64,000 nucleotides of DNA from an uncultured Verrucomicrobiae bacterium (GCA_963726745.1 CAVSDR010000004.1:288001-352000); one strand, 5' to 3'. Shown: positions 1 to 64,000, numbered from the stretch's first letter. Numbers and translations: made by a program. The notes: generated by a model from the letters alone, not told the origin.

Positions 1-2121
1 CGGGTCGGCCAGCGGCGCGGAAATTCCCGCGCCCGCGAGCGACGGCCCCAGCGCGCGCACCAGCAACCGCGCGCTTCCGTTTCCGCGCACGATGAATCCG
101 CCGATGAGAACCGCGTCGCCTTCACCGACAAACCCGCGCGCGCTCAGGTTTACGATCCGTGTCGCCGGGTCGCCATCGACGTCGAAAATCTCCAGCAAGC
201 CGACGCCCTGCCCGCCACCCATGATCGCGGTGTAGGCACCGGGCGCGAGCACTTGCCGCAGGGCCGCCTCGCGCTCATCCGCCGGCGTGAGCGTGCCTAA
301 CGAGTCCGGCGGGAGATCGCGCCAATCATCGTTTGCCGCGAAGACTGCGCCAGCCGCGTTGTGCAGCGCGATCGCAGGATTAGCCAGCACCTTGGCCAGG
401 CCGGCCACGCTGAGCGACGGCCCCAGGCCGCGCACGATGATGCTCTTCGCCCCCTCGCCCGCGATGATGAAACCGCCAATCGCCCCCTGCTCGCCTTCCC
501 CCACGCGCAAGCGCACGGAGATGTTCGCCAGCTCCGCGGTCGCCGCCGTCAGCGCCGCGAAAATAGGCAGCGCGATGGGCGCGAACCGGGTTACGCCATT
601 CGGGTCGCGCGGGAATTTCGCATACGGCAGCCGCAGATCCTCGAAAGAGAATTGATCCGCGCGGACTGCTTCCGGCGCCGGGAAAAGCGCCGCCCCGGAG
701 GCGCCCACGATATCGTCCTGGTCGACGCCGTCGCCGCTGATCCCGATCGCGCCGATGAGTTCGCCGTTGCGATAAAGCGGGAAGCCGCCAGGGAAAATCG
801 TGATCCCGTTCGGGAACGTCGTGCTCGGCGGGAAGAACGGAGGAGTCGTTAGGCTGGCTGTGGGCACGAGCGCAGGCAGGGAGGCGCGGACGAAACCGGA
901 AAGCTCTTCCTGCATCCCGAAGAACGGCCCCGGACCTTCCGGGTCGATCCCGGGCGGGTAGTGCAATTGCGCCAGAAACCCGACCGTGCGCGTGCTGTAA
1001 GCCGCGGGGTTGCGCGAGAAGCCAAGCGCGGTCCGCGCCTTTTGCACGGCGACGTCCCAGCTGAACATGGTCGCGTCGCCCGTGCGAAAAGTAGCCAGCA
1101 CTTTCGGCGGCACGCCAGGGATGCCTGGGTTGTTGACCACGCTGATGAAGGCTTCCATCCGCAGCCCGATGGGCAGCCGGATGGCCGCGCGCGTAGTCCG
1201 CACGCGGTCAGCCGCGGCCTCGATGATCGCGGCCACCTCGGCACTCGTTAGGCGCGGCTGGCCGTTGATCGTGCCCGGGAGCGGGTCGCCCATGATCGGC
1301 TGGCGGATTTGCCCGGTGACCCCGCCGAAGGTCGCGACCGGATAGGGAAAGGCGGGCGGCGACGCGAGCACCGGATAGCCGGCCGCGGCCTTGCCCGGCA
1401 CGCCCGCGCCGCTGGTCGCGCCGGTCGTGCTTTGCACATAAGGCAGCGAGATGCCGGCGATGAAAACATTGCTCGCGCGGATCGACTCCGGCGGCTCGAA
1501 ACCTTTTTGCCCTGCGAGCGCGATGTCTTCGTCTTTCGTGTAGCCGTCGATAAACGTGGTCGGCGGAAACTCCACGCCCGATCCGGTGACGCCGAGGCCG
1601 CCGACGAGCACGCCGTTTTTATAGAGCGGGACGCCGCCGGGGATGCCATTGAGCGAGGTGAGCGGAACGGCGGAGCCGAGCGTGCCGGGCGAGGCGCTGC
1701 CCGGCAGGAAGTCGGGCTTCTTGAAGCGGTTCACATCGGAGAACGGCAGGCTGGAAAAGCCGACGCCGACGAGCGGGCCGGGCGGCTGATTCCGCACCTG
1801 CGGAGGAAAATGCGGTTGGATGATGAAGCCCGCGGTGCGGCTGGTGAAGGCGTTCGAGTTGCTGCTTAAAAACGCAGCCGTGCCCGCTTTCCCGACCGCG
1901 CTGGCGATCTCGAGCGCGTCCGGCTCGCCGCCGCGCACGCTCCAGACGCCGAGGACGTAGCCTTCGCGATCGGTTACCGCGATCACGCTCTGCGGCGCGA
2001 GCTGGCCCGCGCGCCGTGCGGCTTGATCGATCGCGCGCTGCACGTCGCCCGTGGTCAGCTGCGCCCGCACCGGGCCCACGCCGAGGAGGCACGCGAAAAA
2101 AACCAGAAACCATGGCCGCAT
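1..2121 (-). CDS. Secreted tandem heme-binding (GlcG/HbpS-like) protein with C-terminal Verrucomicrobia-type tandem domains; 3' end runs off the window
   Basis: Not in the ORF track (no stop in window). Manual translation from ATG 2121 gives signal peptide MRPWFLVFFACLLGVGPVRA then QLTTGDVQRAIDQAA..VIAVTDREGYVLGVW. Later come PNGITIFPGGFPLYRNGELIGAIGISGDGVDQDD, LANISVRLRVGEGEQGAIGGFIIAGEGAKSIIVRGLGPSL and ..VRALGPSLAGAGISAPLADP at the window edge. Confidence 0.8.
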   Translation of the reverse strand, partial: MRPWFLVFFACLLGVGPVRAQLTTGDVQRAIDQAARRAGQLAPQSVIAVTDREGYVLGVWSVRGGEPDALEIASAVGKAGTAAFLSSNSNAFTSRTAGFIIQPHFPPQVRNQPPGPLVGVGFSSLPFSDVNRFKKPDFLPGSASPGTLGSAVPLTSLNGIPGGVPLYKNGVLVGGLGVTGSGVEFPPTTFIDGYTKDEDIALAGQKGFEPPESIRASNVFIAGISLPYVQSTTGATSGAGVPGKAAAGYPVLASPPAFPYPVATFGGVTGQIRQPIMGDPLPGTINGQPRLTSAEVAAIIEAAADRVRTTRAAIRLPIGLRMEAFISVVNNPGIPGVPPKVLATFRTGDATMFSWDVAVQKARTALGFSRNPAAYSTRTVGFLAQLHYPPGIDPEGPGPFFGMQEELSGFVRASLPALVPTASLTTPPFFPPSTTFPNGITIFPGGFPLYRNGELIGAIGISGDGVDQDDIVGASGAALFPAPEAVRADQFSFEDLRLPYAKFPRDPNGVTRFAPIALPIFAALTAATAELANISVRLRVGEGEQGAIGGFIIAGEGAKSIIVRGLGPSLSVAGLAKVLANPAIALHNAAGAVFAANDDWRDLPPDSLGTLTPADEREAALRQVLAPGAYTAIMGGGQGVGLLEIFDVDGDPATRIVNLSARGFVGEGDAVLIGGFIVRGNGSARLLVRALGPSLAGAGISAPLADP

Positions 2122-2210
2122 CTCCTGCTTTTTAAACGCGGGGCCGCGTCGACACCAGTCCGCGATGAGCTTGCAGATCGCGCCGCGCCTCGCGCATTCT
2201 CCCCGCCGGA

Positions 2211-4211
2211 ATGCGACGCCTCATCCTGCTGGCTATTTTCCTCGCCGGAGCCGCGCTCGCCTTCGCGCAGGACGAGCGCCCGCGCATCGCCTGGATGACC
2301 TCGGAGGAAAACGTCGAGCCGCTCGAGCCGCCCCTGCCGCCTAACGAGTTCAATCCCGATCCCGGCGGCCGCGAACCGGCCGAGCCGGTGCCGCCGCCCG
2401 ATCTCTTCCCGCCGATCCTCCCCCAGCTCCCCGATTACGGGACCGAGGACGTGCCGCGCTCGCTCGAGTTGCCGCGCCGCGGCGTGCGCGAAGTGGTGCC
2501 GCGCCGGCGGAAGCTGGAATACCCGGAGTATCCGGAGCCGGCCGATGGCCGTGGCCTGCCGCCGGGCGCGCAGGCGGTGCCGAACCGCTGGTTCATCGGC
2601 TTCGGCCGCTGGCAACGCTACGCCGATCCGACCGCGGAGACGCCTTACCAAGGCGGCCCGCTGCACCTGTGGCATCCCTACTTGCAGAGCCTGCTCAAGG
2701 GCGACGCGCCGGTGATCGGGCAGGATATTTTCCTCAACCTCACCGTGAGCGATTTCGCGCAATTCGAGGCGCGGCGGCTGCCGGTCCCGAGCGGGGTGAG
2801 CACAGTGCGGCCGAACAGCTCCGAGTTCTTCGGGCGGAGCGAACAGCTTTTTGCCTCCAACGATTTCCAGATCGGCATCGATCTTTTCCGCGGCGAGACC
2901 GCTTTCAAGCCGGTCGAGTGGGCCGTGCGCTTTCTCGGCGTCTACAACACGAACTATCTCGCGGTGCAGGAAGCGAACGTGCTCGATCCCGATCCGCGCG
3001 GGCCGGAGCGGCAGCGAACGGTGCGGCAGAAAGATTTCTTCGCGCTCCAGGAAGCGTTCGTCGAGCTGCACCTGCGCGACCTCTCGCAGAACTACGACTT
3101 CATCTCCTCGCGCCTGGGGATTCAGCCGTTCGTGAGCGATTTCCGAGGCTTTATCTTCAACGATTCCAACCTGGGCGTGCGCGTCTTCGGGAACTACGAC
3201 AACAATCGGCTGCAATATAACCTGGCCGCCTTCGACATGCGCGAGAAGGACACCTACTCGGACCTGAATGAGTTCGGCTCGCGCGAGCAGGTCGTGCTCG
3301 TGGCCAACATTTACCGGCAGGATTTCTTCGTGAAGGGCTACACCGCGCAGTTGAGTTTTCACGCCAACTTCGACCAGGCCAGCCGGCATTATGACGAGAA
3401 CGGTTTCCTCGTTAGACCGGCGCTCCTGGGCGACGTGCGCGATCACTATCTGCAGGCCTACTACCTCGGCTGGAGCGGCGACGGGCACATCGGCCGGCTG
3501 AACATTTCGCACGCGGCCTACCAGGTTTTCGGCGAGGACAGCCATAACGGGATCGCCGGGCGGCGGGTGGACATCTTCGCGCAGATGGCCGCGCTCGAGC
3601 TCTCGATCGACCAGGACTGGCTGCGCCATAAGCTCTCCTTCTTCTACGCCAGCGGCGACGACGATCCGAAGAACGGCCAGGCCTCCGGCTTCGATACCAT
3701 CCTCGACCGGCCGTTCTTCGTCGGCGGCCCGTTTAGCTACTACGTGCACCAGGGCTTCAACCTCGCCGGCACGGCGGTGAACTTTAAGCAGCGCGACAGC
3801 CTGGTGATCGATTTCCGCAGCAGCAAGACCGAGGGACAGGCGAACTTCGTCAATCCCGGCGCGGTCATCCTCGGTTACGGCGCCGACGCGGAGATCACGC
3901 CGAAGCTGCGCGCTTTCCTGAACGTGAACTACATCTGGATGGTCACGACCGAGCCCGTGCGGCAGGTGCTCTTCACGAACAACGCCAGCCACGAAGTCGG
4001 GCTCGATTGCTCGTTAGGCGTCCAATGGCGCCCGTTGCTCACGGACAACATCGTCGTCTCCGCCGGCGCCGGCTTCCTCGTCCCGGGCGCAGGCTACGAG
4101 GACATCTACCGCGCCAACACGCGCCCCGTGCCCGGCTTTCGGCAGGAGCACGTGGGAAAGGTGGACGACTTCTTGTTCAGCGGGATTCTGACGGTAACGC
4201 TGGTTTACTGA
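2211..4211 (+). CDS. Putative outer-membrane beta-barrel protein (porin/alginate-export-like)
   Basis: Signal peptide, Pro-rich N-terminus, alternating aromatic beta strands and C-terminal ..LTVTLVY (terminal aromatic typical of OM barrels). Stop overlaps the next start (TGATG). Confidence 0.7.
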   Translation: MRRLILLAIFLAGAALAFAQDERPRIAWMTSEENVEPLEPPLPPNEFNPDPGGREPAEPVPPPDLFPPILPQLPDYGTEDVPRSLELPRRGVREVVPRRRKLEYPEYPEPADGRGLPPGAQAVPNRWFIGFGRWQRYADPTAETPYQGGPLHLWHPYLQSLLKGDAPVIGQDIFLNLTVSDFAQFEARRLPVPSGVSTVRPNSSEFFGRSEQLFASNDFQIGIDLFRGETAFKPVEWAVRFLGVYNTNYLAVQEANVLDPDPRGPERQRTVRQKDFFALQEAFVELHLRDLSQNYDFISSRLGIQPFVSDFRGFIFNDSNLGVRVFGNYDNNRLQYNLAAFDMREKDTYSDLNEFGSREQVVLVANIYRQDFFVKGYTAQLSFHANFDQASRHYDENGFLVRPALLGDVRDHYLQAYYLGWSGDGHIGRLNISHAAYQVFGEDSHNGIAGRRVDIFAQMAALELSIDQDWLRHKLSFFYASGDDDPKNGQASGFDTILDRPFFVGGPFSYYVHQGFNLAGTAVNFKQRDSLVIDFRSSKTEGQANFVNPGAVILGYGADAEITPKLRAFLNVNYIWMVTTEPVRQVLFTNNASHEVGLDCSLGVQWRPLLTDNIVVSAGAGFLVPGAGYEDIYRANTRPVPGFRQEHVGKVDDFLFSGILTVTLVY

Positions 4212-7200
4212 TGAAGAAGCGGCTGGCTACTAATTCGCTTCGTCACGGGCATCCGAAGCGCGGCGGGAGACTTTGGATCACGGCAGCTTCCCTGCTCCTA
4301 GCGACCGCCACCGTCGCCAGCGCCCAGGATCTCCCGCCGACCTCCGTTTCGCCAGATGCCGACGTGACCCACCCGGCGCCGGCTCCGCGCCGCAACTGGA
4401 TCGACCAGACCCAAGCCCAAGCCGACGGCAAAAGCAGCGGCTGCCTCCAATGCCACGCGGGCGTGGAGCCGATGCACGCCTCGCCCGCGGTTGTGCTCGG
4501 CTGCGTCGATTGCCATGGCGGCAATCCCGCGCGTGGCCTGGCGAAAGAGCAGGCGCATGTCCTCCCGAAGAACGCCGAGTTTTGGAAGTCGTCGGCTAAT
4601 CCGCCGAACTCGCACGCCTGGTTGAACCACGAATCGCCCGAGTTCATCCGTTTCATCAATCCCGGCGACCTGCGTGTCGCCGACAAATCCTGCGGCCTGT
4701 GCCACGGCGAGATCATCCGCAACGTCCATCACAGCATGATGCGCCACGGCGCGATGCTTTGGGGCGCAGCGCTCTATAACAACGGCGGCTACAACCAAAA
4801 GAATTACCGCTTTGGCCAAGCCTACGGCGCGAGCGGGGTGCCGCTGCGCCTCGAGAGTTACGAGCCGGTCACGGCCAACGAAACGAGGACGCGCGGGCTG
4901 CTGCCGTTCCTCGATCCGCTCCCGCGCTTCAACCTGAGCAATCCCGGGAACATCCTGCGCATCTTCGAGAAGGGCGGCGAGAAGCCGCTCTCGTTAGGCA
5001 ACCCGACGATCAACGAGCCGCCCGGCCGGCCGGCGCGCCGCCTTTCCGAGCGCGGCCTCGGCACCTCGAACCGCACCGACCCGGTCTTCCTCGGCCTGCA
5101 GAAAACGCGGCTGCACGATCCGTTGCTCGACTTCCTCGGCTCGAACGATCACCCCGGCGATTACCGCTCGAGCGGCTGCTCCGCCTGCCACGTGGTCTAC
5201 GCGAACGATCGCTCACCGAGCAACTCCGGCTGGTGGAGCAAATATGGGCACCAAGGGCTGAGCTTCACCGCGGACAAAACGATCCCGAAGAACGAGCCGG
5301 GACACCCGGTGCTGCACCAATTCACCCGCTCGATCCCCTCGAGCCAGTGCATGAACTGCCACATGCACCAGGGCAACCTCTTCGTGAACCCGTTCCTCGG
5401 TTACACCTGGTGGGACCAGGAAACAGACGGCGAGTTCATGTATCCAAAGGAACAGCGGGACCCGACCGACGCAGAGCTCGCGCAGGCGGTGCAGAAGAAT
5501 CCCGAGGCCGCAGCGGCGCGCGGACTTTGGGGCGACCCGGATTTCGTGGCGAAAGTCGCGGAGTTAAATCCGCAACTGAAGCACACGCAATTTGCCGATT
5601 ACCATGGGCACGGCTGGGTCTTTCGCGCGGTCTTCAAGAAGGACCGGAAGGGCAACCTGCGGGATTTAGCCGACAACTTGATCGCGCACGACGACCCGGA
5701 AAAGTTCAAGAAGGCGGTGCACTTGAAGGATGTCCACCTCGCGAAAGGGATGCAGTGCGTCGACTGCCATTTCGACCTCGACGTGCACGGCAACGGCAAC
5801 CTCTACGGCGAGGCGCGCAACGCCACCAGCATCACCTGCGTGGATTGCCACGGGACGATCCGGCAACGGCCCACGCTGGTCACGAGCGGCAACGCGGGCG
5901 CGATCGACCTCGCCCAAACCAGCAACACGCCCTTCGGTCCGCGCTTCCGCTGGGAGGGGACGCGGCTCTGGCAGCAATCGACCATGTCGCCGGATGTCCG
6001 CTGGGAAATCCCGCAAACGATCGACACGGTTGATCCGCTCTCGGCGCACTACAACGCGAAGTCGGCCTATGCCAAGACGCTCCAGCGCGACGGCCAAAGC
6101 TGGGGCGGCAGCCGCGCGCGCGATGCGAACGGCGGCCCGCACCTGGCGCACGACAACGAGAAGATGGATTGCCAGATCTGCCACACCTCCTGGGCGACCA
6201 GTTGTTTTGGCTGCCACCTGCCGATGAAGGCAAACGTGCGCGCGGCGCAGAACAAGTTCGAAGGCGTGACCGACCGCAACTTCACCACCTACAACCCGCA
6301 GGTGGTGCGCGACGACGTCTTCATGCTCGGGATCGATGGGACGGTGAAGGGCAACCGGATGGCGGTGATCCGTTCCTCCAGCGCGGTCGTGGTCAGCTCG
6401 CAAAACGCCAACCGCGAGTGGGTCTACTCACAGGCGCAGACGATCTCGGCCGAGGGCTACAGCGGGCAGGCGTTCAACCCGCACTTCGCGCATACCACCA
6501 GCGGCGTCGGGACAACCAAAGGCTGCACCGATTGCCACCTCTCACAGGCGAACGACAACAACGCCTGGATGACGCAGCTCCTCGGGTTCGGCACCGGGCT
6601 GATGAACTTCTTCGGCCGCTACGCCTACGTCGGCGAAGGACCGGATGGCTTCCACGCGGTCGCCTGGACGGAAGCGGAGGAGCCGCAGGCGGCGCTCGGC
6701 AGCCACCTTCATCGTCTCGCCTACCCGGCCAATTTTAAGCAGCACCTTGAGCGCGGCGGAAGACTGGAAGAGGCGCACGAACATTCCGGGAAAAACATCC
6801 AGGACCTCGTGCTCCGCGGCGAATACCTCTACACCGCAAACGGGCCCGGCGGGCTGGAGGTGTTCGACGTGGCGAACATCGACCAGAAAGGTTTCTCCGA
6901 GCGGATCGTGACCTCGCCGGTTTCGCCGCTCGGGCAACGGACTTACGTGCCCACGAAGTTCGCCACCAGCGTGGCGCTGCCGGCGACCGTGGCGCTCGAT
7001 CCCGCGCGGGTCCGCCGGCCCGAAAACGAAGAGCAACCGATCGACCCATTCTACGGCTACGTCTTTGTCTCCGATCTCGAGGAAGGCCTGGTGATCGTGA
7101 ACGTGGCGTCGCTGGTCGATGGCGATCCGAACAATAATTTCCTGAAGAAGGATGCGGTCTTCAATCCCGACGGCCTTCTCGCGCGGCGCCAGCTTCGTGG

Positions 7201-8075: not shown

Positions 8076-9210
8076 ATGGAACCGACTCCTGCCGACGAAG
8101 CACCGCCAGCCGCCGCATCCGAGGAGATGATCGCCGTGCCGCGGAGGCGCATGCCGGACCTGCTCCAGCGGCCCTTCGACATCCGGTCGTTCGCGCTCAG
8201 CGGGCTGTTTATTCTCGCGCTCTTTTACACCTTCTACTTCACCCGCGCGCTGCTCCTCCCGATCGTGCTCGCCTTGCTCCTGAGTTTCTCTGCTCGCGCC
8301 TTTCGTACGCGGCCTGGCCAAGGTGCGCATCCCGGCGCCGGTCAGCGCAGTAGTGCTCCTGGTCGCGATTATCGGCACGCTCGGCTACGGGGTTTCCTTC
8401 CTTGCGGCGCCCGCGGCTGGCTGGCTGGAGAATGCGCCCTACGGGATGCAGCAACTGCAGCAGCGCCTGGTGCCGTTGCGCAAACCGATGGAGAAAGTCG
8501 CCCAGGCCAGCGGGGAGATCGAAAACCTGACTGCGCCCACAGCCAAGCAGCCGGTCCCGACGGTGGAGGTGAAACAGCATCACATGAGCGAGATGATCCT
8601 CGGCCGGACGCCGGAGTTTATCGCCAGTGTGGTCTTGCTCCTGATCCTGCTCTACTTCCTCCTGGCTTACGACGGCGTCTTTCTCGGCAAGGTGATCAAA
8701 ATGATGCCGCGCCTGAAGGACAAGAAGCGCGCGGTCTCGATCGCGCATGACATCGAGCGCCACGTCTCGCGCTATCTGCTCACGGTCACCTTGATTAACG
8801 TCTCGTTAGGAGCGGCGGTCGGCTTGAGCGTGGGCCTGCTGGGTTTGAAGAACCCGGTGATGTGGGGAGTGCTCGTGGCGGTGTTAAACTTCGTGCCCTA
8901 CCTCGGCCCGCTCGTGGGCATTGCTTGCATGACCATTGGCGCGGTCCTGAGTTATCCCAGCCTCGGCTACGCCATGATCTTTCCCGGGATTTACCTCGCG
9001 ATTGCCACGATCGAGGGGAACTTCATCACCCCAATGGTCATGGGCCGGTCGCTGACGCTCAATCCCGTGCTCATCCTGCTCTCGATCACCTTCTGGGGGT
9101 GGCTCTGGGGAATCGTCGGGATCATCGTCGCGGTGCCGATCCTGGCCTCGTTTAAGATCTTCTGTGAGCACATCGAACCGATGGAGCCGATCGCGGAATT
9201 TCTCAGTTGA
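8076..9210 (+). CDS. AI-2E family (PerM/YhhT-like) transporter; +1 frameshift near 8289
   Basis: Hydrophobic helices, LNFVPYLGP, EGNFITPMVMGRSLTLNP and FWGWLWGIVG motifs; ORFs 8076 and 8323 join into one protein. Confidence 0.85.
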
Positions 9211-9495: not shown

Positions 9496-10032
9496 CTACC
9501 TGGCGGTCAAGACGTGCTCCGCATAGCGCGCCAGGAGCCAGCAGAGATCGGAAAGCCGATTCAGGTAGCGGAGGACTTCCCCGTTCGTCATCTCGCCGCC
9601 TAACGAGGCCACGCGCCGCTCGGCCCGCCGGCAGGTGGTGCGGCAGACGTCGAGGGTCGCGGAAACCATGGTGTTTCCGGGAATGGCCCAGCCCTTGTAA
9701 TGGAGCAGCTTGTCCTTCTCCAAGTCGTCGACTAATTCCGTGAGCCGGTCGACCATCGCCGTGGTCGTTAGGGAATAGCCATCGCCTTGGTAGCGGGCGA
9801 GGTCCTCGGGCGCGGTCGCGAGCTCGCCCATGACCGTGATCAGTTCCTTTTGGATCGCGAGCAGCGTCTCGGCGATGAAGCCGACACCAGCGGTGACGCG
9901 CGCTACGCCGAGCGCAGCATTGAGTTCATCTACCGAACCGTAAGCCTCGACCCGCGGGTGGCTCTTCGGCACCCGGCGGCCATACATCAACGCGGTCTCG
10001 CCGGCGTCGCCGGTCTTGGTGGCAATAGACAT
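9496..10032 (-). CDS. PduO-type cob(I)alamin adenosyltransferase
   Basis: IATKTGDAGET, RVEAYGSVDELN, CRRAERR and YLNRLSD motifs. Confidence 0.9.
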   Translation of the reverse strand: MSIATKTGDAGETALMYGRRVPKSHPRVEAYGSVDELNAALGVARVTAGVGFIAETLLAIQKELITVMGELATAPEDLARYQGDGYSLTTTAMVDRLTELVDDLEKDKLLHYKGWAIPGNTMVSATLDVCRTTCRRAERRVASLGGEMTNGEVLRYLNRLSDLCWLLARYAEHVLTAR

Positions 10033-10046
10033 CAATCTCTCCCGGA

Positions 10047-36869: not shown

Positions 36870-37751
36870 ATGGAACTCAAGGCCTACCTCGCCGCGCGCC
36901 AAAAAGAAATCGACCGCGCGCTCGATCGTCTCCTGCCGAAAGCGTCGGCTAAACCCGCGACGATCCACCGGGCGATGCGCTACAGTTTGTTCGCCGGCGG
37001 GAAGCGCCTCCGCCCGATCCTTTGCCTGGCCGCGGCGGAAGCGTGCGGTGGAAAAATCGCGCCCGCGCTGCCGCTGGCCGGCGCGGTCGAGTGCATCCAC
37101 ACCTACTCGCTGATCCACGACGATCTCCCGAGCATGGACAACGATGATCTCCGCCGCGGCCGCCCGACTTCGCACAAGGTTTACGGCGAAGGCATCGCAG
37201 TCCTCGCGGGCGACGCGCTCCTCACGGCCGCGTTCGAAATGCTGACGCACGCGGACCTGCCGCGGCGTTACCCGATGGCCGCGGTCGTGCGCGAGCTCGC
37301 GCAGGGCGCCGGGAGCCAGCGCTTGATCGCCGGGCAGGTGGCCGACCTCGAGGGCGAAGGGAAAAAGATCAACCGCGCGGGCCTGCGTTACATTCACGAG
37401 AACAAAACCGCCGCGATGCTCGCCACCTCCGTGCGGCTGGGCGCGATGAGCGCCGACGCCAGCGGCCGGCAACTCGCCGCGGTCACGAAGTTCGGCAACT
37501 CGTTAGGCCTGGCCTTCCAGGTGATCGACGACATTCTCGACGTCACCCAGACGAGCGAGAAGCTCGGCAAAAGCGCCGGTAAAGATGTGGCCGCGGCCAA
37601 GGCGACCTACCCGGCGATCATCGGACTGCAGAAGTCGCGCAAGGAAGCGCAGCGCCTCACGCAGGAAGCCGATGCCGCGCTCAGCCCGCTCGGCTCGCGC
37701 GCGGAAACGCTGCGCGCGATCGCGCGCCATCTGCTGGATCGGGAGTATTGA
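36870..37751 (+). CDS. ispA: Polyprenyl (farnesyl/geranylgeranyl) diphosphate synthase
   Basis: GGKRLRP, SLIHDDLPSMDNDDLRRG, FQVIDDILD, KATYP. Confidence 0.9.
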   Translation: MELKAYLAARQKEIDRALDRLLPKASAKPATIHRAMRYSLFAGGKRLRPILCLAAAEACGGKIAPALPLAGAVECIHTYSLIHDDLPSMDNDDLRRGRPTSHKVYGEGIAVLAGDALLTAAFEMLTHADLPRRYPMAAVVRELAQGAGSQRLIAGQVADLEGEGKKINRAGLRYIHENKTAAMLATSVRLGAMSADASGRQLAAVTKFGNSLGLAFQVIDDILDVTQTSEKLGKSAGKDVAAAKATYPAIIGLQKSRKEAQRLTQEADAALSPLGSRAETLRAIARHLLDREY

Positions 37752-45885: not shown

Positions 45886-45957
45886 GGCCTCGTGTAGGCG
45901 ATTTACCCGGCAAAAGCAACTCGCGCGCCCCCGGGAGAAAGCTAAGGTGCGCAGCAC

Positions 45958-51688: not shown

Positions 51689-52674
51689 GACAACGAAAAC
51701 TGGGACGCGGCGGACCTTGCGTGTCCGCGCTGGGACTGGGTTGCATGGGCATGTCGGATTTCTATGCCGGCCGCGATGAAGCCGAGTCCGTGGCTACGCT
51801 CGAGCGCGCGCTGGAATTAGGCATCACTTTCTTCGACACCGCGGACATGTATGGCCCGCACACGAACGAGCAACTCGTCGGGCGCGTGCTCAAAAACCGG
51901 CGCGAGCAAGTGGTGTTGGCGACCAAGTTTGGGATCGTGCGCGACCCGGCCAATCCCAAGACACGCGGCGTAAGCGGGAAACCGGACTATGTGCGCCAGG
52001 CCTGCGAAGCAAGCCTGCGTCGGCTCGGTTTCGAATGCCTCGACCTTTACTACCAACACCGGGTCGACCCGGAAACGCCGATCGAGGAAACAGTCGGCGC
52101 GATGGCGGAATTGGTCGTCGCGGGCAAGGTGCGTTACCTTGGCCTTTCGGAAGCGAGCGCGGAAACCATCCGGCGCGCGCATGCCGTCCACCCGATCACC
52201 GCGGTGCAATCGGAGTATTCGCTCTGGACGCGCGACCCGGAAGAAAACGTGCTCCAGACTTGCCGGGAATTAGGCATCGGTTTCGTGCCCTACAGCCCGC
52301 TCGGCCGCGGATTCCTGACTGGGCAGATCAAGCGTTATGAGGACCTGGCGGAAGACGATTACCGCCGGCAATCGCCAAGGTTCCAGGGAGCTAATTTCCA
52401 GCGCAACCTCGACCTGGTGCAGCGGGTCGGCCAGCTCGCGCGCGAGAAGCATTGCACCCCGGGACAGCTGGCGCTTGCCTGGGTGCTGGCGCAAGGCGAT
52501 GACATCGTCCCGATTCCTGGAACCAAGCGCCGGAAATACCTCGGGGAAAACGTGGGCGCACTGGAGGTGAACCTAACGAGTGCCGACCTCGCGCGGATCG
52601 AGGAGCTGGCGCCGCGGGATGCTTTTGCGGGCGAGCGTTACCCTGCGGAAATGATGAAGACGGTGAATCGCTAA
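51685..52674 (+). CDS. Aldo/keto reductase
   Basis: [44 protein letters not shown]. Confidence 0.93.
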
Positions 52675-54686: not shown

Positions 54687-55412
54687 ATGAACAATCTTTA
54701 CCTTTACCTGAACGGCGTCCGCCGCGGACCCATCGAGGAAAGGCGCGTGCGCGCCCTGCTCGAGGAGCAACTCCTGCGACCGGAGGACCTGGCCAGCGCC
54801 GAGGTCCAGGGCGAGTTGAAACCGCTGGCTCATTTCCTCGCGCCGGCTCCAGCCGTGCCACCACTCGTTAGGCCCACCGCTGTTCCCTTGCCGGCTACGG
54901 CGCTTGGCTCGTATTCCCGCGCCACCCTCGGTGCGGACGAGGTGCCATTCTTCCAAACGAACCTGCACTGGATCGTTTTCCTCCGCTTCGGCCTTGCCGG
55001 GCTGGTGCTCTTTCTCTTCGCGGCCTTGCCCCTGGCGGTGGGCGTGCAGGCCCTGCTCGGCTCGCAGCTCGGCTGGTTTCTCCTCCCCCTGCCCGCCTTT
55101 GTGATGGTCCCGCCGGCGCTGGCCTACGCCAGCAGCGAGCTCGTGATTACGAACATGCGCGTCTTGATCAAGACCGGCGTCATCCGACGCCAATCGCTCG
55201 AGATGTTTGTCCCGCGGATCGAGTCGATCGCGGTCGAGCAGGGATTTCTCGGCCGCCTCTTCGATTACGGCACGGTCTTGATTCGCGGCACCGGCGGTTT
55301 CCAGGAACCCTTCGAGTCCATCGCGCGGCCGCTGGAGTTTCGGAACTGCGTGCAGCGCCTGCAAAACGGCAGCCCGGAAGGGAGCGCAGGCCTGCGCCAA
55401 AGGGCTGGCTAA
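54687..55412 (+). CDS. Membrane protein with N-terminal GYF_2-like and C-terminal bacterial PH domain
   Basis: YLYLNGVRRGP; two TM helices; ITNMRVLIKTG..IESIAVEQGFLGRLFDYGTVLI. Confidence 0.75.
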   Translation: MNNLYLYLNGVRRGPIEERRVRALLEEQLLRPEDLASAEVQGELKPLAHFLAPAPAVPPLVRPTAVPLPATALGSYSRATLGADEVPFFQTNLHWIVFLRFGLAGLVLFLFAALPLAVGVQALLGSQLGWFLLPLPAFVMVPPALAYASSELVITNMRVLIKTGVIRRQSLEMFVPRIESIAVEQGFLGRLFDYGTVLIRGTGGFQEPFESIARPLEFRNCVQRLQNGSPEGSAGLRQRAG

Positions 55413-56535: not shown

Positions 56536-58215
56536 ATGCGCACCCTCCTGCTCGCGGCCGCCATCTCGCTGTCTCTTTCCGCGTCCGCTCGCGCCGCCGA
56601 TCCGCAATTCGACCTGGTCATCGCCGGTGGCGACGTCTTCGACGGGACGGGCAGCCCGCCGGTGCGCGCGGATGTCGGGATCAAGGGCGACCGCATCGTG
56701 GCCCTGGGCGACCTGCGGGAACGCGCGGCCGCGGAACGGATCGACGCCACCGGCCTGGCGGTCGCACCCGGCTTCATCAACATGCTCTCCTGGTCTAACG
56801 AGTCGTTGATTGCCGATGGCCGTTCGCAAAGCGAAATCCGCCAGGGCGTGACCACCGAGATCATGGGCGAAGGCGAATCCATGGGCCCGGTGAATGACCG
56901 GGTGCGCGCGCACATGCTCCGCGGGCAAAAAGACATCAAATACCGGATCGCGTGGACCACGCTCGCGGAAGCGCTCCGTTTCCTCCAGGAACGCGGCATC
57001 TCCTGCAACGTCGCCTCCTTCGTCGGCGCGACCACCATTCGCGAGCACGTGATCGGTTTTGACGACCAGGCGCCCACGCCGGCGCAGCTCGAGGAGATGC
57101 GCGCGCTCGTGCGGCAGGCGATGCGGGAAGGCGCGCTCGGCGTGGGCACGTCGCTGATTTATCCGCCGGCCTTCTACGCGCAGACCGAGGAGTTGATCGA
57201 ACTCTGCAAGGTGGCCGCGGAGTTCCAGGGGAAATACATCTCGCACATGCGCAGCGAAGGAAACCACCTCCTGGAGGCCTTCGATGAACTCAAGCGGATC
57301 GCGCGCGAAGCGAAGATCCCCGCGGAGATTTATCACCTCAAAGCCGCGGGCGAAAAGAATTGGGGCAAGCTCGACGAACTGCTCGCGCGCATCGAGGCCG
57401 CGCGCGCGGAAGGGCTCAAGATTACCGCCGATATCTATACCTACCCGGCCGCGGGCACCGGGCTCGATGCCTGCCTCCCGCCGTGGACGCAGGACGGCGG
57501 CTATCCCGCGCTCTTCCGCCGCCTGCGCGATCCCGCGACGCGCAAAAAGATCGCCGGGCAAGTGGCGCAGCCGAGCGACGACTGGGAGAATTTCTACCTC
57601 GCCGCCGGTTCCCCCGAGCGCATCCTCCTGGTCGGCTTCAAGTCGGAAAAGCTCAAGCCGCTCACCGGGAAAACTCTCGCCGAGGTCGCGCAGCTGCGCG
57701 GCGTGGACCCGATCACCACGCTGATGGATTTGATCGCCGAGGACGAGTCGCGCATCGACACGGTTTACTTCGTCATGTCGGAGGAAAACGTGCGCAAAAA
57801 AGTGGCGCAACCATGGATCACCTTCGGCTCCGACGAAGCCTCGCAACCGAACGAGGGCGTCTTCCTGAAGTCGCATCCGCATCCGCGCGCCTATGGGAAT
57901 TTCGCGCGCCTTCTCGGCAAATACGTGCGCGAAGAAAAAGTGATCTCGCTGCCTGAAGCAATCCACCGGCTGAGCGGGCTGCCCGCGACCAACCTCGGCC
58001 TGGATCATCGCGGCTTCCTCCAGGAAGGGATGTTCGCCGACGTCGTCGTGTTCGACCCGGCGACGATCGCCGACCGCGCGACCTTCGCCGAGCCGCAGCA
58101 ATACGCCGTGGGCATGCGGCACGTCTTCGTCAACGGAAAGCAGGTGCTGCGAGATGGCGAGCATACCGGCGCGAAGCCCGGCCGGGCCTTGCGCGGCCCG
58201 GGCGCGACTCGTTAG
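56536..58215 (+). CDS. Exported N-acyl-D-amino-acid deacylase-like amidohydrolase
   Basis: FDGTG..ADVGIKGDRI, VAPGFI, SHMRSEG, HPRAYGNFAR, ADVVVFDP. Confidence 0.88.
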   Translation: MRTLLLAAAISLSLSASARAADPQFDLVIAGGDVFDGTGSPPVRADVGIKGDRIVALGDLRERAAAERIDATGLAVAPGFINMLSWSNESLIADGRSQSEIRQGVTTEIMGEGESMGPVNDRVRAHMLRGQKDIKYRIAWTTLAEALRFLQERGISCNVASFVGATTIREHVIGFDDQAPTPAQLEEMRALVRQAMREGALGVGTSLIYPPAFYAQTEELIELCKVAAEFQGKYISHMRSEGNHLLEAFDELKRIAREAKIPAEIYHLKAAGEKNWGKLDELLARIEAARAEGLKITADIYTYPAAGTGLDACLPPWTQDGGYPALFRRLRDPATRKKIAGQVAQPSDDWENFYLAAGSPERILLVGFKSEKLKPLTGKTLAEVAQLRGVDPITTLMDLIAEDESRIDTVYFVMSEENVRKKVAQPWITFGSDEASQPNEGVFLKSHPHPRAYGNFARLLGKYVREEKVISLPEAIHRLSGLPATNLGLDHRGFLQEGMFADVVVFDPATIADRATFAEPQQYAVGMRHVFVNGKQVLRDGEHTGAKPGRALRGPGATR

Positions 58216-58228
58216 GCGAAAAGGTCGT

Positions 58229-59431
58229 ATGGAAAATTCCCTGGCGCGGGCCGTCCGGGCGATCTATCAACGCCGGCCTTACCCCGATCCCGCGCGCACC
58301 CGGCGCAAGATTACCTGGCAACTTCCCCCGCCCGAATGGATCCAGGCGATCGCGGACGTGGCCGCGCCGCCGCGAATCCTCGTGGCCGGTTGCGGGACAG
58401 GGAACGAGGCCTTCGCCTTGCGACGTCGCTTCCCCGAGGCTGAGATCGTCGCGCTCGATTTCTCGACGCGCGCGCTTGCCCTGGCCAGGACACTGGAGCG
58501 CTCGCTCCTCCGACGTGCGCGACCGATCGCTTTCCAGCAAGCCGACCTGAGCGAGCCCGGCTGGACGCGGCCCTGGCGGGAAACGTTCGACTTCATCAGC
58601 GCTCACGGCGTCTTCTCCTACATTCCCGCGCCGGCCCGGGCGCTGCGCCATCTGGCCGCCTGCCTAACGAGTGAAGGCGCGGTCTATTTGGGCGTAAATG
58701 GGGCGCCGCATTACAGCACTCGCTGGCGCCCGGCGTTGCGCGCGCTGGGATTCGATCCCGCCCGCTTCCCGGACAACGCGCGCGCCCTCCGCGGGGTGCT
58801 CGGCCTGTGCGATGCGCTCGCCGGACACGCGCCGGATGAAATTGCCGGCAAACCGGCGGACTACCTCGCGGGCGATCTCTTCGGGCCGTTGATCACGACG
58901 CAATCCCTCGACGAATGGAGCGCCCTCGCGGCCGGCGCCGGGCTCGAGTTTCACGGCAGCTACCCCGCGCACCGCAAACTCCGCCGCGCCTTCGCCGATC
59001 GGCGCTACCGCCTGCTCTTCCCCCGTGGCCGGGCCGAGGCGCAACGACTCGCGGAGCAGCTCGCGCCCTCCTCGTTCCACCAGCTTCTCTTTCGGCGCAC
59101 GCCGCCGCCGGTGGTGCCTTGGAAAAATCGCGCGCGCCTCCTGCGCTGGCGCCCAGAGCGCACTGGCCTTTATCGGCTCGTTAGACCAAAAGCCGCTGCC
59201 GCCGGCGCGGACCGGGAGCGTCTGGTCTTTGAAAGCGAAGGAAGCAACACCCGCGTGGAACTCCAGGCCGCGCGGTGGGTTCGCCGCCTCCTGCGCGCGG
59301 CGGATGGCACCAAGTCGCTGGCTAGTTGCCTCGCCGACGAACGGCCGCGCCCGTCCGCCGCCGAGATTGCCGAGGAACTTTACCCGCTCGAATTGCTCGC
59401 GGTCTTGAATTTCCGGCCGCCCCTCCCCTAA
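58229..59431 (+). CDS. Class I SAM-dependent methyltransferase
   Basis: YQRRPYP, ILVAGCGTG, ALDFS, FDFISAHGV. Confidence 0.8.
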   Translation: MENSLARAVRAIYQRRPYPDPARTRRKITWQLPPPEWIQAIADVAAPPRILVAGCGTGNEAFALRRRFPEAEIVALDFSTRALALARTLERSLLRRARPIAFQQADLSEPGWTRPWRETFDFISAHGVFSYIPAPARALRHLAACLTSEGAVYLGVNGAPHYSTRWRPALRALGFDPARFPDNARALRGVLGLCDALAGHAPDEIAGKPADYLAGDLFGPLITTQSLDEWSALAAGAGLEFHGSYPAHRKLRRAFADRRYRLLFPRGRAEAQRLAEQLAPSSFHQLLFRRTPPPVVPWKNRARLLRWRPERTGLYRLVRPKAAAAGADRERLVFESEGSNTRVELQAARWVRRLLRAADGTKSLASCLADERPRPSAAEIAEELYPLELLAVLNFRPPLP

Positions 59432-59484
59432 CGAGCGCGGCTTTTGATTTGCCGGCCGAGGCGCGCTCCTCCTAACCTCGCGAC

Positions 59485-61233
59485 GTGAAAGCCTTCGCTC
59501 TCCTCGCCCTTCTGCCCACCCTCCTCGCCGCCCAATCCGTGCAGGAAACGCCGCCCGACCTCTCCGGCAAAGCGCTCCTGACCAAATCCGCGCCGGTCGC
59601 CGGCGCGACCGTGCTGCGCAATCTCGCGCGCGAATATTACGCCTGGCGCAACGAGAACTTTCCCGTCTGGAGCAGCGATGCCGGGCTGCATCGCTGGGAC
59701 GATCGGCTGACCGATTACGCCCCCGCGAAAATCGCGGAGCGCCAGGAGCACGTCCGCGCGCTCCTGGAGAAAGTGCGCACGATGAAGACGGAAGGCTGGT
59801 CGAAGGACGACCGGATTGATTGGCTCCTTTTCCGCGCACAGCTCGAGCAGGCCGCCTTCGGCGATCGCGTGCTCGAATCGACCCGCAAGAATCCGCAGGT
59901 CTATCTCGGCGAGTGCACCGGCGGCATCTTTTCGCTCCTGAAAAAGGAGTATGCCCCGCCGCGCGAACGCGCCCTCGCCGCCACCGCGCGTTTGCGCCAG
60001 ATGCCGGCCCTGCTGAAGCAAGGCCTCGGCAACCTGCAGAATCCGGTGAAGCTCTACGCGCAGCTCGCGATCGCCTCGGCGCGCGCGATTGATCCGCTCT
60101 TTACCGGCAGCCTGATGGCGCTCGACCAGGGGCTTTCGCCGGAAGAACACCAGAACCTGGTGGAGGCGCGCGACGCCGCCCTCGCGGCCACCCACAGTTT
60201 TGCCGACGAACTGGAGAAACGACTGCCCGCGATGCCGGACTTCGCACCCATGGGCGAGGCGAACTACAACTACTACCTCAAGCACGTCCTTCTGCTCCCG
60301 CTCGATGCCGCCCAGGTCGAGATGCTTGGCCGGGTCGAGCTCGGGCGTTATCGTGCGCTCGAGGCGATGCTGCGCGATCCCTCGTTAGCCGATCCGAACC
60401 CCGCGCGGAGCAAAAACATCCCGCCCGACCAGGCCTCGTTCCTCCAGGCCTACGAGAGCCGCGAGGCGGAGATGATCGCCTTTTTGAAGGACAACAAACT
60501 GGTTACCGTGCCGGAATATCTCGGGCGTTTCGAGATCCGGCAATTACCCGACGCCTTCAAGCCGACTAGCCCGGGAGGTTTCATGAACCCGCCCGGCCTT
60601 TACGATAAGGACCCGACCGGCTTCTACTTCATCCCGACCTACAACCCGGAGTCGAAGAACTTTTACATCCGCGCGGCGATCGAGGACCCGCGCCCGATCC
60701 TCGGGCACGAGGGCATCCCCGGCCACTTCATGCAGCTCTCGATTGCGAATCATTTGCCGAACGAAATTAGACGGCAACATGGCGACAACGTCTTCGTCGA
60801 AGGCTGGGCGCTTTATGGCGAGGAGATGCTCCTGCGCCGCGGCCTTTACCCGGAGAATTCCCCCGCGCACGGCCAGATCCTGCGCCTCTCGCGCTATCGC
60901 TCCGCCCGCATCGGGGTGGACGTGAACCTGCACACCGGCCGCTGGAGCTTCGAGGAAGCGGTCAAGTATTTCCAGGAAGCTGGCGGGCTCGACCGCGAAG
61001 CCGCCGAAGGCGAAGCCGCCGGCGCCGCCTCCGATCCCACGCAGAAAATCAGCTACATCACCGGCAAATGGCAGATCATGAATCTGCTCGGGAAATACCG
61101 CGACCAGAAAGGCCCCGACTTCTCGTTAGGCAAATTCCACGACGACCTGATCAAGCACGGCAGCCTCCCCTTATCGATCATCCAATGGATCCTGCTGGAC
61201 GACCCGAGCGCGCTCGAACAAGCGCTGAAGTAA
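59485..61233 (+). CDS. DUF885 family protein
   Basis: GHEGIPGHFMQ, FVEGWALYGE, VDVNLH, FSLGKFHD; signal peptide. Confidence 0.87.
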   Translation: MKAFALLALLPTLLAAQSVQETPPDLSGKALLTKSAPVAGATVLRNLAREYYAWRNENFPVWSSDAGLHRWDDRLTDYAPAKIAERQEHVRALLEKVRTMKTEGWSKDDRIDWLLFRAQLEQAAFGDRVLESTRKNPQVYLGECTGGIFSLLKKEYAPPRERALAATARLRQMPALLKQGLGNLQNPVKLYAQLAIASARAIDPLFTGSLMALDQGLSPEEHQNLVEARDAALAATHSFADELEKRLPAMPDFAPMGEANYNYYLKHVLLLPLDAAQVEMLGRVELGRYRALEAMLRDPSLADPNPARSKNIPPDQASFLQAYESREAEMIAFLKDNKLVTVPEYLGRFEIRQLPDAFKPTSPGGFMNPPGLYDKDPTGFYFIPTYNPESKNFYIRAAIEDPRPILGHEGIPGHFMQLSIANHLPNEIRRQHGDNVFVEGWALYGEEMLLRRGLYPENSPAHGQILRLSRYRSARIGVDVNLHTGRWSFEEAVKYFQEAGGLDREAAEGEAAGAASDPTQKISYITGKWQIMNLLGKYRDQKGPDFSLGKFHDDLIKHGSLPLSIIQWILLDDPSALEQALK

Positions 61234-61437: not shown

Positions 61438-61683
61438 TGACAGACGGCGGAGGGGGCTTGGGTAGCACGCAGCGTGACGGCAGAGGACTCGTTAGGGTGT
61501 TCTTGGGACGAGTGCTCTGCCGGCGCGATGCGTGCCGGGTCTCGTTGCCCAAGGCGGTGGCCGCGATGCCGTTTCGTTTGATGCAGCGCAGCTGCCGCTA
61601 ATCTTCTACTACTCGTTAGGCGTGATCGCCGACTTTGGCGATGACGCCGGTCGCGAGCGCAGTATCCTTTGGCGATTGTGGGT

Positions 61684-63226: not shown

Positions 63227-63579
63227 AGCAGAACCCCGGGCACGGCCACGCCGAGGAGCAGGCTCAGGGTGGCGGCCAGAGGTTGCCGGCTAAATCGGTA
63301 GGCCATGACCACGCCGAGCACGCTCGTGCTGACCAGCCCGGCCGCGGCCAGGACCATGAAGTAGCGCAGCGGCGTGGGCTGGCGCGCGGGGGTTGGCGGG
63401 ACGTGCGCCTCGGTGTGAATCTCCGAAAGCACGGAGAGCGCGCGCGGGGCCAGGTAGCTCCGGTCCTTGGTGCTCTTGTGATAGTTAAAAAGCTGCCAGG
63501 CGCCGGTGACGGCGAAGAAGATCAACATCGGCGCGAAGAAGCAGCCGAGATAAAGATGGAGGCGGCGGAGGAGTTTCAT
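63211..63579 (-). CDS. PepSY-associated TM helix-like small membrane protein
   Basis: LRRLHLYLGCFFAPMLIFFAVTG motif plus further TM helices. Confidence 0.7.
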   Translation of the reverse strand: MKLLRRLHLYLGCFFAPMLIFFAVTGAWQLFNYHKSTKDRSYLAPRALSVLSEIHTEAHVPPTPARQPTPLRYFMVLAAAGLVSTSVLGVVMAYRFSRQPLAATLSLLLGVAVPGVLLWIYR

Positions 63580-64000
63580 CGAGAAGCGTCGAGGGCCGCG
63601 CCCAGGCGCTCCAGCCCGGCGCGAAGTTCTGCCGCCTCGCCGCCGATGCCAAGACGGAAATGGTCCGGCCGCTCAAAGAAGTGTCCGGGGACGACGGTGG
63701 TCTCGAAGTCGTCGCGTAACCGCTGGAAAAAACGCTCCGGATCGCCGCTCGTTAGGCGCGGGAAGAAGACCGAGCCGGCCGGCGGGCGGAAGCAGTCGAG
63801 ATCCGTGCGCGCATCGAGGAATTTCTCCATGATCGGGCGATTAGCCGACAAGATGGCCTGGCTGCGCGCGCGGAATTGCGCGAGCCGATCGAAGGCCAGG
63901 ACGGAGAGCCGCTCCGGGACGTGCGGCGCGGTCGCGCCGAAAAGATCGTTCAAACGCCAGATGCGCTCAGCTAGATTCGGCGCGGCCAGGATCCAGCCGC
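63576..64000 (-). CDS. PLP-dependent aminotransferase class I/II, C-terminal part (5' end outside the window)
   Basis: GWILAAPNLAERIW.., TVVPGHFF, HFRLGIG. Confidence 0.75.
   Translation of the reverse strand, partial: GWILAAPNLAERIWRLNDLFGATAPHVPERLSVLAFDRLAQFRARSQAILSANRPIMEKFLDARTDLDCFRPPAGSVFFPRLTSGDPERFFQRLRDDFETTVVPGHFFERPDHFRLGIGGEAAELRAGLERLGAALDASR

Follow-up and report, generated by a model that had tools for sequence, protein, structure and literature searches.

What keeps one short word so frequent in a 64,000-nt stretch of the genome of an uncultured Verrucomicrobiae bacterium? The stretch, here called the window, is positions 288001-352000 of contig C4 in a 3,406,779-bp assembly (genome G000; 7 contigs, GC content 62-64%). 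A preliminary description of the window, made from the sequence alone, had drawn attention to an iterated word, here called motif 1, and had suggested an uptake-sequence-like system or a site for a methylase, recombinase or nucleoid protein. The reading we favour, with the scales standing about level, is that motif 1 is an uptake-sequence-like self-recognition signal that would have spread by biased uptake and recombination. We therefore file it as working like an uptake sequence and as a putative member of that class, which is defined by biased uptake.

Our recount found 27 copies of CTCGTTAGG in the window (16 on the plus strand and 11 on the minus strand), every one at the coordinates listed in the preliminary description, against a mean of 0.17 and a maximum of 2 in 100 dinucleotide-preserving shuffles. 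As had been stated, 21 of the 27 extend to the 10-mer CTCGTTAGGC (shuffle mean 0.07). For the core TCGTTAG the count is 55 (3.38 on average and at most 7 in the shuffles), which leaves 28 core-only sites, in agreement with the approximately 28 reported before; the example coordinates then given (845, 3408 and others) are off by one base, in front of the core, a trivial difference. Nor is the word limited to one contig: all 7 contigs carry it at 0.32-0.53 copies/kb. The genome as a whole (3.41 Mb) has 1,312 copies of TCGTTAGGC, 960 of CTCGTTAGG, 820 of CTCGTTAGGC and 2,025 of TCGTTAG. CTCGTTAGGC is the commonest 10-mer of the genome, TCGTTAGGC ranks second among the 9-mers, behind CGCGCGCGC, and the lists of over-represented words of 7-10 nt are headed by motif 1 and its sub-words. 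The order-3 Markov expectation is 19.7 for TCGTTAGGC and 6.1 for CTCGTTAGGC, and that of order 4 is 84 and 24; the enrichment of TCGTTAGGC, about 65-fold on the order-3 expectation, thus persists under higher-order models, as it does under a codon-aware one (see below).

Constraint on DNA and gene context

A logo built from all 1,312 sites holds information only from position -5 to position +8, with W at -5 (70% A/T), A favoured at -2, and C in 62% of sites at -1, where A is almost never found and after which TCGTTAGGC follows. The consensus can be written W-N-N-A-C-TCGTTAG-G-C. Farther out, the flanks show only a weak 3-nt periodicity, and motif 1 is therefore not part of a longer repeat. Among single-base variants, GTTAG is essentially invariant, while the first and the last two positions are graded, and T in place of the C of TCG is tolerated (93 copies, 39 times the expectation). 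With its all-or-none core and tolerant edges, motif 1 looks like a protein recognition site. It is not palindromic, its reverse complement being GCCTAACGA.

The copies are shared almost evenly between the strands (631 plus, 681 minus). This balance was found in 50-kb windows with positive GC skew (154 plus, 166 minus) as well as in those with negative skew (474 plus, 511 minus), and the Spearman correlation with skew was 0.045. On contig C6 (1.03 Mb), where 20 of 21 such windows are negatively skewed, 198 plus-strand and 210 minus-strand copies were counted, so that a replication polarity of the Chi or KOPS (FtsK-orienting polar sequence) type can be ruled out. Strong leading-strand polarity, which the preliminary description had named as a pointer to Chi or KOPS instead, was not found in this replichore check.

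Gene context was taken from a crude set of gene calls of our own, which was trained on codon bias and comprises 2,872 genes (85% coding). Motif 1 is about as dense within genes (0.381/kb) as between them (0.406/kb), and 1,108 of the 1,312 copies (84%) are in genes, where 579 have the sense and 529 the antisense orientation. Each of the four open frames is in use, TCG TTA GGC (SLG) in 442 cases, xLTx in 224, PN(E/D) in 218 and xVRx in 71; within the window too, each of the readings named before (SLG, LVR, PNE and LTS) occurs. The remaining two frames include a stop and serve at gene ends: 180 of 2,871 genes stop inside the word (77 of 1,018 at TAG and 103 of 862 at TAA). GCC TAA CGA closes 103 of the 189 genes that end in Ala-TAA, and T CGT TAG GC closes 77 of the 198 that end in Arg-TAG. 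Stop codon usage is TAG 35%, TGA 35% and TAA 30%, which is unusual at 64% GC and of which the words explain only a part, the gene calls being crude; by the same calls, there are 462 pairs of convergent genes, and in 105 of them the two genes share exactly 4 nt at the stops.

Spacing between the 2,025 core sites is more even than expected, with 108 gaps below 200 bp (227 expected) and 44 below 100 bp (117 expected). For the uptake signal sequence (USS) of Pasteurellaceae, an even distribution has been described as an expected consequence of molecular drive (PMC7811141).

It had been claimed that the constraint acts on DNA rather than on protein, and the reading frames, the codon-aware counts and a 12-genome alignment support this strongly. 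The word forces codons that are scarce in this genome, as had been noted, TTA making up 2.8% and CTA 1.3% of leucine codons; 444 of 2,894 TTA codons (15%) lie inside TCG-TTA-GGC. Of 757 SLG tripeptides, 444 (59%) are spelt by the word, where codon usage predicts 4.2. The same holds for PNE (153 of 246, or 62%, versus 7.1 expected) and PND (55 of 142 versus 4.0). The proteome itself is bent, with SLG at 1.63 times the expectation from composition (0.91-1.23 times in five permutations) and PNE at 2.47 times (0.64-1.82 times in the permutations). For USS and for the DNA uptake sequence (DUS) of Neisseriaceae, the encoded tripeptides have been found to be about doubled, and genes without homologues to lack the word (PMC2817400).

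Twelve genomes of the genus, with 82-86% identity, were aligned over the rpoC-rpoB-L7/L12-L10-L1 region (one row, G001, is an unpublished genome). At the word sites in rpoC, rpoB and L1 the proteins are invariant, and sites were gained through one to four synonymous changes to rare codons, which is the synonymous convergence among orthologues that had been proposed as a check. For example, LTR is encoded by CTA ACG AGG in the sister genomes G013 and G024 and by CTC/CTG ACN CGN in the other ten, and SLV by TCG TTA GTT in the same two genomes and by TCN CTN GTN (e.g., TCG CTC GTC) in the rest. VR is written as GTT AGG in G024 alone, and VVR as GTC GTT AGG in G013 alone. The rpoB site that encodes EMQSLGL reads TCG TTA GGN in 11 of the 12 genomes and TCG CTC GGC in G002. 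The pattern shows that some sites are old and have been kept, and that others are recent gains by substitution, never by insertion. The same rpoB site had been cited earlier as an instance of the word; in the window it is indeed present (GAA ATG CAG TCG TTA GGT CTC, 14320-14340), but as a core site (GGT) and not as the full 9-mer. The word reveals a force on the DNA to which codon preference has given way in rpoB, rpoC and genes of ribosomal proteins.

Motif 1 is also unevenly divided between typical and atypical DNA. Its density is 0.088/kb in the 5% of 5-kb windows with the lowest GC and 0.551/kb in the top quartile, a six-fold gradient that holds although the word is less GC-rich than the genome. 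The longest core-free gap, 25 kb at 58% GC (C7:60030-85007; chance multiplied by the number of gaps, 0.0007), is a polysaccharide/O-antigen cluster with DegT aminotransferases, an epimerase, Wzt, Wzy_C and glycosyltransferases, which has probably been exchanged horizontally. Several other long gaps are likewise low in GC. Composition and gene content suggest that such atypical DNA was recently acquired.

Relatives, dialects and a second word

EF-Tu encoded in the window is 90% identical to that of a metagenome-assembled genome titled Candidatus Udaeobacter sp., and the next match (81%) is to one titled Verrucomicrobiota bacterium; EF-Tu is a poor query for naming the lineage, with only one close relative among 80 loci. 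Judged by sequence similarity, Candidatus Udaeobacter is the closest named relative of the word-bearing family. In the 24 other genomes of the genus the count of motif 1 is 138-2,412 throughout, versus 30-118 for a reversed control word. Most genera of the family are enriched for motif 1. In the family (121 genomes in 30 genera, G000 included), 89 genomes reach at least three times the control and 35 at least ten times, by a hand count of the table, with a maximum of 4,336 copies in 3.2 Mb (G083). Some members are at background level, among them G059 (13 copies versus 29 of the control), G068 (60 versus 79) and several genomes of genus g21. Outside the family the word is not enriched. Counts are 1-19 in the 16 genomes from 15 other families of the order and 0-12 in the 59 non-family genomes of a phylum-wide draw, and in every one of them the control word is commoner. 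Two of the 24 congeners (G001 and G008) and one g21 genome (G045) are unpublished, and no conclusion depends on them alone. In G028, which belongs to another family of the order, the few copies of the word form same-strand series 0.4-0.9 kb apart (e.g., C7:94047-96651) and are probably repeats within a large repetitive gene.

The form of the word differs between genera. TCTCGTTAG, a left-shifted dialect, outnumbers TCGTTAGGC in 9 of 11 g21 genomes, and TCGTTAGGC is the commoner form in each of 12 genomes from the window's genus. In an unbiased k-mer scan of a g21 genome (G129, 387 kb), CTAACGAGA came out 35 times versus 1.3 expected and GCCTAACGA only 16 times. Applied to 325 kb of G059, the same scan provided a negative control: no hyper-abundant word emerged, and the leading 9-mers stood at 4-8 times expectation. 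G002, a congener with little motif 1, was sampled over 254 kb and has CGGACGGCAA 29 times versus 1.2 expected and GGAATGCGGA 20 times versus 0.8; these moderately enriched words may be that genome's own.

The window's genome also carries a second abundant word, motif 2. TTAGCCAGC occurs 479 times versus 15.7 expected, and its variants TTAGCCGAC (315) and TTAGCCGGC (318) share its flanks, which are RAW on the left and RMNWTS on the right; about 80% of copies have T at +13. Motif 2 can thus be written RAW-TTAGCC-(AG|GA|GG)-C-RMNWTS, about 18 nt long, with 1,112 copies. It resembles motif 1 in its behaviour, lying in several frames and on both strands without polarity, at 0.130/kb in genes and 0.203/kb in spacers, and has only TTAG in common with it. 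Its site at 16886 in rpoB is unique to this genome and was created by two synonymous changes (CTC GCC to CTG GCT). Among the 121 family genomes, TTAGCCAGC is enriched in three: the present one, G015 of the same genus (127 copies) and G045 (136). The other 118 hold 3-49 copies, at most about the level of the reversed control and mostly well below it. Motif 2 is nearly species-specific. The densities of the two words show a weak positive correlation (rho 0.22-0.28), and a mosaic genome of two ancestries was rejected on this ground.

The sites of both words in the window are collected in Table 1. Five of the core-only sites contain stop codons, those at 10114 (rpoC), 18857 (L10), 44462, 36385 and 43344. 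At 36385-36391, and likewise at 43344-43350, two convergent genes share 4 nt and both take their stops from a single copy, which provides TAG to one strand and TAA to the opposite one. Two genes of the window are each split into two pieces, rpoB into overlapping open reading frames (ORFs) at 14266-17133 and 16970-18166, and the aminotransferase gene at 44465-46839; both splits are probably frameshift errors of the assembly. Public reads from only two soil-metagenome runs, both of one study, cover small shares (0.18 and 0.10) of a 10-kb stretch; their contigs are short, some run error-free across three sites, and they may derive from the source sample and so are not independent support. Tandem hexamer arrays, (GCCAAC)n and (CCGACT)n, which encode Ala-Asn and Pro-Thr repeats, were observed elsewhere in the genome near the 3' ends of several large genes.

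Table 1. Copies of motif 1, its core and motif 2 in the window (window coordinates), and tandem hexamer arrays of the genome (contig coordinates)
Feature	Position	Strand	Context
Motif 1, CTCGTTAGGC	296..304	-	sense in gene ..2121(-), TCG TTA GGC = SLG
Motif 1, 10-mer	1244..1252	+	antisense in gene ..2121(-), CTA ACG AGT = LTS
Motif 1, 10-mer	2340..2348	-	antisense in gene 2211-4211(+), CCT AAC GAG = PNE
Motif 1, 10-mer	4010..4018	+	sense in gene 2211-4211(+), SLG
Motif 1, 10-mer	4990..4998	+	sense in gene 4211-7573(+, cytochrome c3-like), SLG
Motif 1, CTCGTTAGGA	8802..8810	+	sense in AI-2E transporter gene 8323-9210(+), SLG
Motif 1, 10-mer	9599..9607	-	sense in cobalamin adenosyltransferase gene 9496-10035(-), SLG
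Motif 1, CTCGTTAGGG	21192..21200	+	antisense in VWA-domain gene 21155-25885(-), LTS; covered by error-free public soil-metagenome contig
Motif 1, 10-mer	22425..22433	-	sense in VWA-domain gene 21155-25885(-), SLG
Motif 1, 10-mer	25689..25697	-	sense in VWA-domain gene 21155-25885(-), SLG; covered by error-free public contig
Motif 1, 10-mer	25899..25907	+	intergenic
Motif 1, CTCGTTAGGG	28224..28232	+	sense in DUF885 gene 28180-29835(+), SLG
Motif 1, 10-mer	32715..32723	-	intergenic, 35 nt from tRNA 32608-32680
Motif 1, 10-mer	35013..35021	-	intergenic
Motif 1, 10-mer	37499..37507	+	sense in polyprenyl synthetase gene 36858-37751(+), SLG
Motif 1, 10-mer	38083..38091	-	sense in tsaD 37764-38765(-), SLG
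Motif 1, 10-mer	44780..44788	+	antisense in aminotransferase ORF 44465-45010(-), PNE
Motif 1, 10-mer	47707..47715	+	sense in AIR-synthase-related gene 46625-48214(+), SLG
Motif 1, CTCGTTAGGT	52572..52580	-	antisense in aldo/keto reductase gene 51721-52674(+), LTS
Motif 1, 10-mer	54864..54872	+	sense in gene 54687-55412(+), CTC GTT AGG = LVR
Motif 1, 10-mer	58208..58216	+	contains TAG stop of amidohydrolase gene 56536-58215(+), ACT CGT TAG
Motif 1, 10-mer	58663..58671	-	antisense in methyltransferase-domain gene 58229-59431(+), LTS
Motif 1, CTCGTTAGGG	59427..59435	-	reverse complement contains TAA stop of methyltransferase-domain gene 58229-59431(+), CCC TAA CGA
Motif 1, 10-mer	61122..61130	+	sense in DUF885 gene 59485-61233(+), SLG
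Motif 1, CTCGTTAGGG	61488..61496	+	intergenic
Motif 1, 10-mer	61612..61620	+	intergenic
Motif 1, 10-mer	63748..63756	+	antisense in gene 63576-64637(-), LTS
Core-only TCGTTAG, 17 starts	846, 3409, 9765, 10114, 18857, 20525, 24937, 25875, 26280, 36385, 43344, 44462, 46962, 47363, 50395, 59178, 60382	+	
Core-only TCGTTAG, 11 starts	14325, 18272, 21096, 23418, 28795, 36567, 38369, 44246, 53187, 55498, 56795	-	14325 in rpoB, EMQSLGL
Motif 2, TTAGCC(AG|GA|GG)C, 9 nt, starts	380, 5666, 16886, 20817, 28264, 42518, 63841	+	16886 in rpoB
Motif 2, TTAGCC(AG|GA|GG)C, 9 nt, starts	4591, 28254, 36448, 36944, 55404, 56462, 63285	-	
Tandem hexamer arrays (G000)	C1:5032-5258, C3:82903-83070, C3:731566-731832, C4:146656-146855, C6:313569-313929, C6:1027519-1027668		

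Uptake signal or another role

If motif 1 works as an uptake signal, a surface DNA receptor of the type IV pilus/ComEC route would prefer fragments that bear the word, and the fragments taken up would replace the homologous allele through recombination. Under such preferential uptake and allele replacement, mutations that create or improve the word would be transmitted more often than those that destroy it, which amounts to molecular drive. The word would then be written by point substitution wherever this is cheap, that is, at synonymous positions, C-terminal codons, stop codons and spacers. Drift of the receptor's specificity could have led to dialects such as TCTCGTTAG in one genus, and a second word (RAW-TTAGCC-RR-C-RMNWTS) would have arisen in this species. 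DUS and USS have been described as words of 9-10 nt with hundreds to thousands of copies, restricted to a family and split into dialects, scarce in recently acquired genes, and encoding stops in some frames (preprint 10.1101/2025.10.24.684340).

Uptake machinery is encoded in the genome, where a search for competence genes had been recommended. There is an 849-aa open frame for ComEC, and DprA and ComM are present. Six matches to the PilT family lie above the curated cut-off, together with three ATPases of the PilB/GspE type, one PilC/GspF, and one secretin of the GspD type with two further secretins. At least seven prepilins were found; three of them are tandem paralogues, and a cluster of minor pilins lies at C3:1033-1035 kb. 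In the same region (C3:1032975-1035000, compared with G013 and G059), a 248-aa prepilin has 34% identity over half its length to that of a congener, and the sequences give a hint that pilin cassettes may be exchanged between lineages.

Several observations weigh against an uptake role. ComEC occurs in 114 of the 121 genomes of the family, among them all 11 of g21 and the word-less G059 and G068; being present regardless of the word, the competence genes do not discriminate and are permissive evidence only, so that this check supports the presence of the machinery but not its link to the word. Genes of the competence type are also found in many non-transformable bacteria, as seen in control genomes, and the ComEA-like helix-hairpin-helix ORF is a weak match whose C-terminal part is seemingly frameshifted. 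The DUS and USS receptors are type IV minor pilins (PMC12616744, PMC3868556). Two minor pilins compared in five chosen genomes were hypervariable and neither tracks the word, which gave no receptor candidate and established no ComP orthologue; the 248-aa prepilin is closest (46% identity over the full length) to that of a genome of another genus without any abundant word. The 15-fold variation in copy number within the genus fits drive, and equally any fast-evolving recogniser. Two unrelated abundant words in one genome call for something more to be assumed, namely two receptors or one that shifts. Inverted pairs of the terminator type are absent, with 11 pairs within 100 bp among the 1,312 sites, 3 of them convergent. 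Such pairs have been reported to hold about half of DUS and USS (preprint 10.1101/2025.10.24.684340); they are common in these systems and are not a defining trait. Finally, a literature search that did not cover subscription journals found no report of uptake sequences or natural transformation for Verrucomicrobia, Udaeobacter or Chthoniobacterales, in agreement with the earlier remark that none was described for this lineage. The proposed likeness to DUS and USS stands as to pattern (a non-palindromic word on both strands and in genes, family-limited dialects, depletion from atypical DNA, and competence genes), and fails as to terminator pairs.

The other explanations depart from uptake in what would read the word. 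HIP1 of cyanobacteria is a hyper-abundant word in genes whose function is obscure and which overlaps methylation sites. Motif 1 might by this precedent be a cis signal for genome maintenance, recognised, for example, by a conserved orphan DNA methyltransferase or by a factor for repair or recombination, with no role in uptake, which we think unlikely. An N6/N4 methyltransferase (PF01555), usually one ORF of about 280-320 aa, occurs in all 41 family genomes searched, and genes for N6_Mtase and a C5 methylase are present in this genome. However, the N6/N4 enzyme is also found in the word-poor G045, G073 and G068, and C5 methylases are sporadic (14 of 41), being absent from the word-rich G072, G061, G071, G062 and G090, so that neither class tracks the word. 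Of the methylase alternative raised in the preliminary description, the cytosine-5 form thus cannot explain a family-wide word, and the N6/N4 form, which is present throughout, word-poor genomes included, might still do so, as might a DNA-binding protein. Moreover, an ungapped, non-palindromic word of 9-10 nt is an unusual methylase target, and a cis role predicts neither the 15-fold range of density within the genus nor the deficit of close pairs. It is more doubtful still that motif 1 is the binding site of an abundant protein that organises the nucleoid or segregates the chromosome, i.e., an architecture-imparting sequence. The all-or-none core with graded edges and the evenly spaced sites on all contigs would suit it, but the known architectural words KOPS, SRS (SpoIIIE recognition sequence) and Chi are strand-polarised and motif 1 is not; 138-2,412 copies among congeners, whole genera near background and a second, species-specific word also fit it poorly.

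Of similarly low probability is a self-marker for a nuclease, recombinase or defence system, either a non-polar analogue of Chi or a protective tag, with fast turnover of specificity. Such a marker would account for a specificity limited to lineage or species, and the patchiness of motif 2 (479 copies here, 127 in G015, 136 in G045) resembles that of defence or restriction genes; the reverse complement of motif 2 begins with GCTGG, as does Chi of E. coli, which is a weak resemblance. Against this, neither word is biased in orientation, no candidate system was identified, and a 65-fold enrichment of a 9-mer is far above that of any known Chi. None of these three rivals predicts even spacing together with a wide range of density among congeners. 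A mobile element of the MITE (miniature inverted-repeat transposable element) or REP (repetitive extragenic palindrome) kind, a repeated protein motif, ambush stops, or an artefact of assembly or binning is scarcely credible. With TAG on one strand of the word and TAA on its complement, every copy adds an off-frame stop, and genes do end inside it (the 180 of 2,871 given above). Yet an off-frame stop requires 3 nt and not a 9-10-mer, and the word, being fixed at that length and present on both strands and between genes, led us to reject ambush selection as well as regulation by rare TTA codons. A dispersed REP or MITE repeat was rejected because there are no conserved flanks or inverted repeats, the density is equal in genes, and sites in rpoB, rpoC and L1 arise by substitution without change in length; a protein motif does not account for the use of four open frames, both strands and spacers. 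Besides, over 100 separate assemblies contain the word, and so do public short-read contigs that are free of errors.

Taking the uptake reading further, it is possible, though somewhat less probable than that reading by itself, that this soil family related to Candidatus Udaeobacter uses a DNA self-recognition code for natural transformation, which would be the first uptake-sequence system outside Proteobacteria, with a specificity that is still evolving (an old family-wide TCGTTAG core, genus-level dialects with a shifted reading window, losses of the word and a newborn second word of about 18 nt). According to preprint 10.1101/2025.10.24.684340, sequence-specific uptake of self-DNA is on record for no more than two families, both in Proteobacteria. 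If Verrucomicrobiota had a third system, unrelated to those, codes of this kind would be seen to arise repeatedly, and it would imply frequent homologous recombination by transformation in a globally abundant, uncultured soil lineage. The words would then be ready markers for binning, for the detection of foreign DNA and for the identification of the receptor by co-evolution. With more than 4,000 copies to none, with dialects and with a new species-specific word, the family offers a natural series for tests of reader-protein co-evolution and molecular drive. Whatever its function, the word is a strong taxon-specific signature with which metagenome bins can be checked and horizontally acquired DNA flagged.

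Comparison with known systems

Motif 1 resembles HIP1 of cyanobacteria as a hyper-abundant word in coding sequence across a lineage, and differs from it in that HIP1 is palindromic. With Chi and KOPS/SRS it shares over-representation and lineage specificity; those words are co-oriented with replication and few-fold enriched, whereas motif 1 is non-polar and enriched about 65-fold.

The closest parallels are with the two uptake systems. The USS of Pasteurellaceae has a 9-nt core with flanking preferences, and its predicted receptor is the minor pilin ComN/PpdA (PMC12616744). Motif 1 is unrelated to USS in sequence and belongs to another phylum, Verrucomicrobiota; it has no AT-rich flanking tract beyond the single W at -5 and no terminator pairs, and in every frame it calls for rare codons, in contrast to USS, whose frames go with preferred ones (PMC2817400). 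In other respects the two are alike: both are short, non-palindromic words with about a thousand copies on both strands, evenly spaced, with clade types and with the encoded tripeptides roughly doubled. Both are missing from atypical DNA or genes without homologues, and both lie mostly in genes (65% of USS in ORFs of H. influenzae, PMC2817400; 84% of motif 1).

The DUS of Neisseriaceae, 10-12 nt long, has at least eight dialects and the receptor ComP (PMC3630211, PMC3868556). Unlike motif 1, whose density is equal inside and outside genes and which forms no pairs, DUS lie mostly outside ORFs (34.5% in ORFs, PMC2817400), often as inverted terminator pairs. Like DUS, motif 1 is limited to one family in which an invariant inner core is kept while the flanks vary between dialects, it is depleted in putatively acquired DNA, and it occurs together with type IV pilus machinery.

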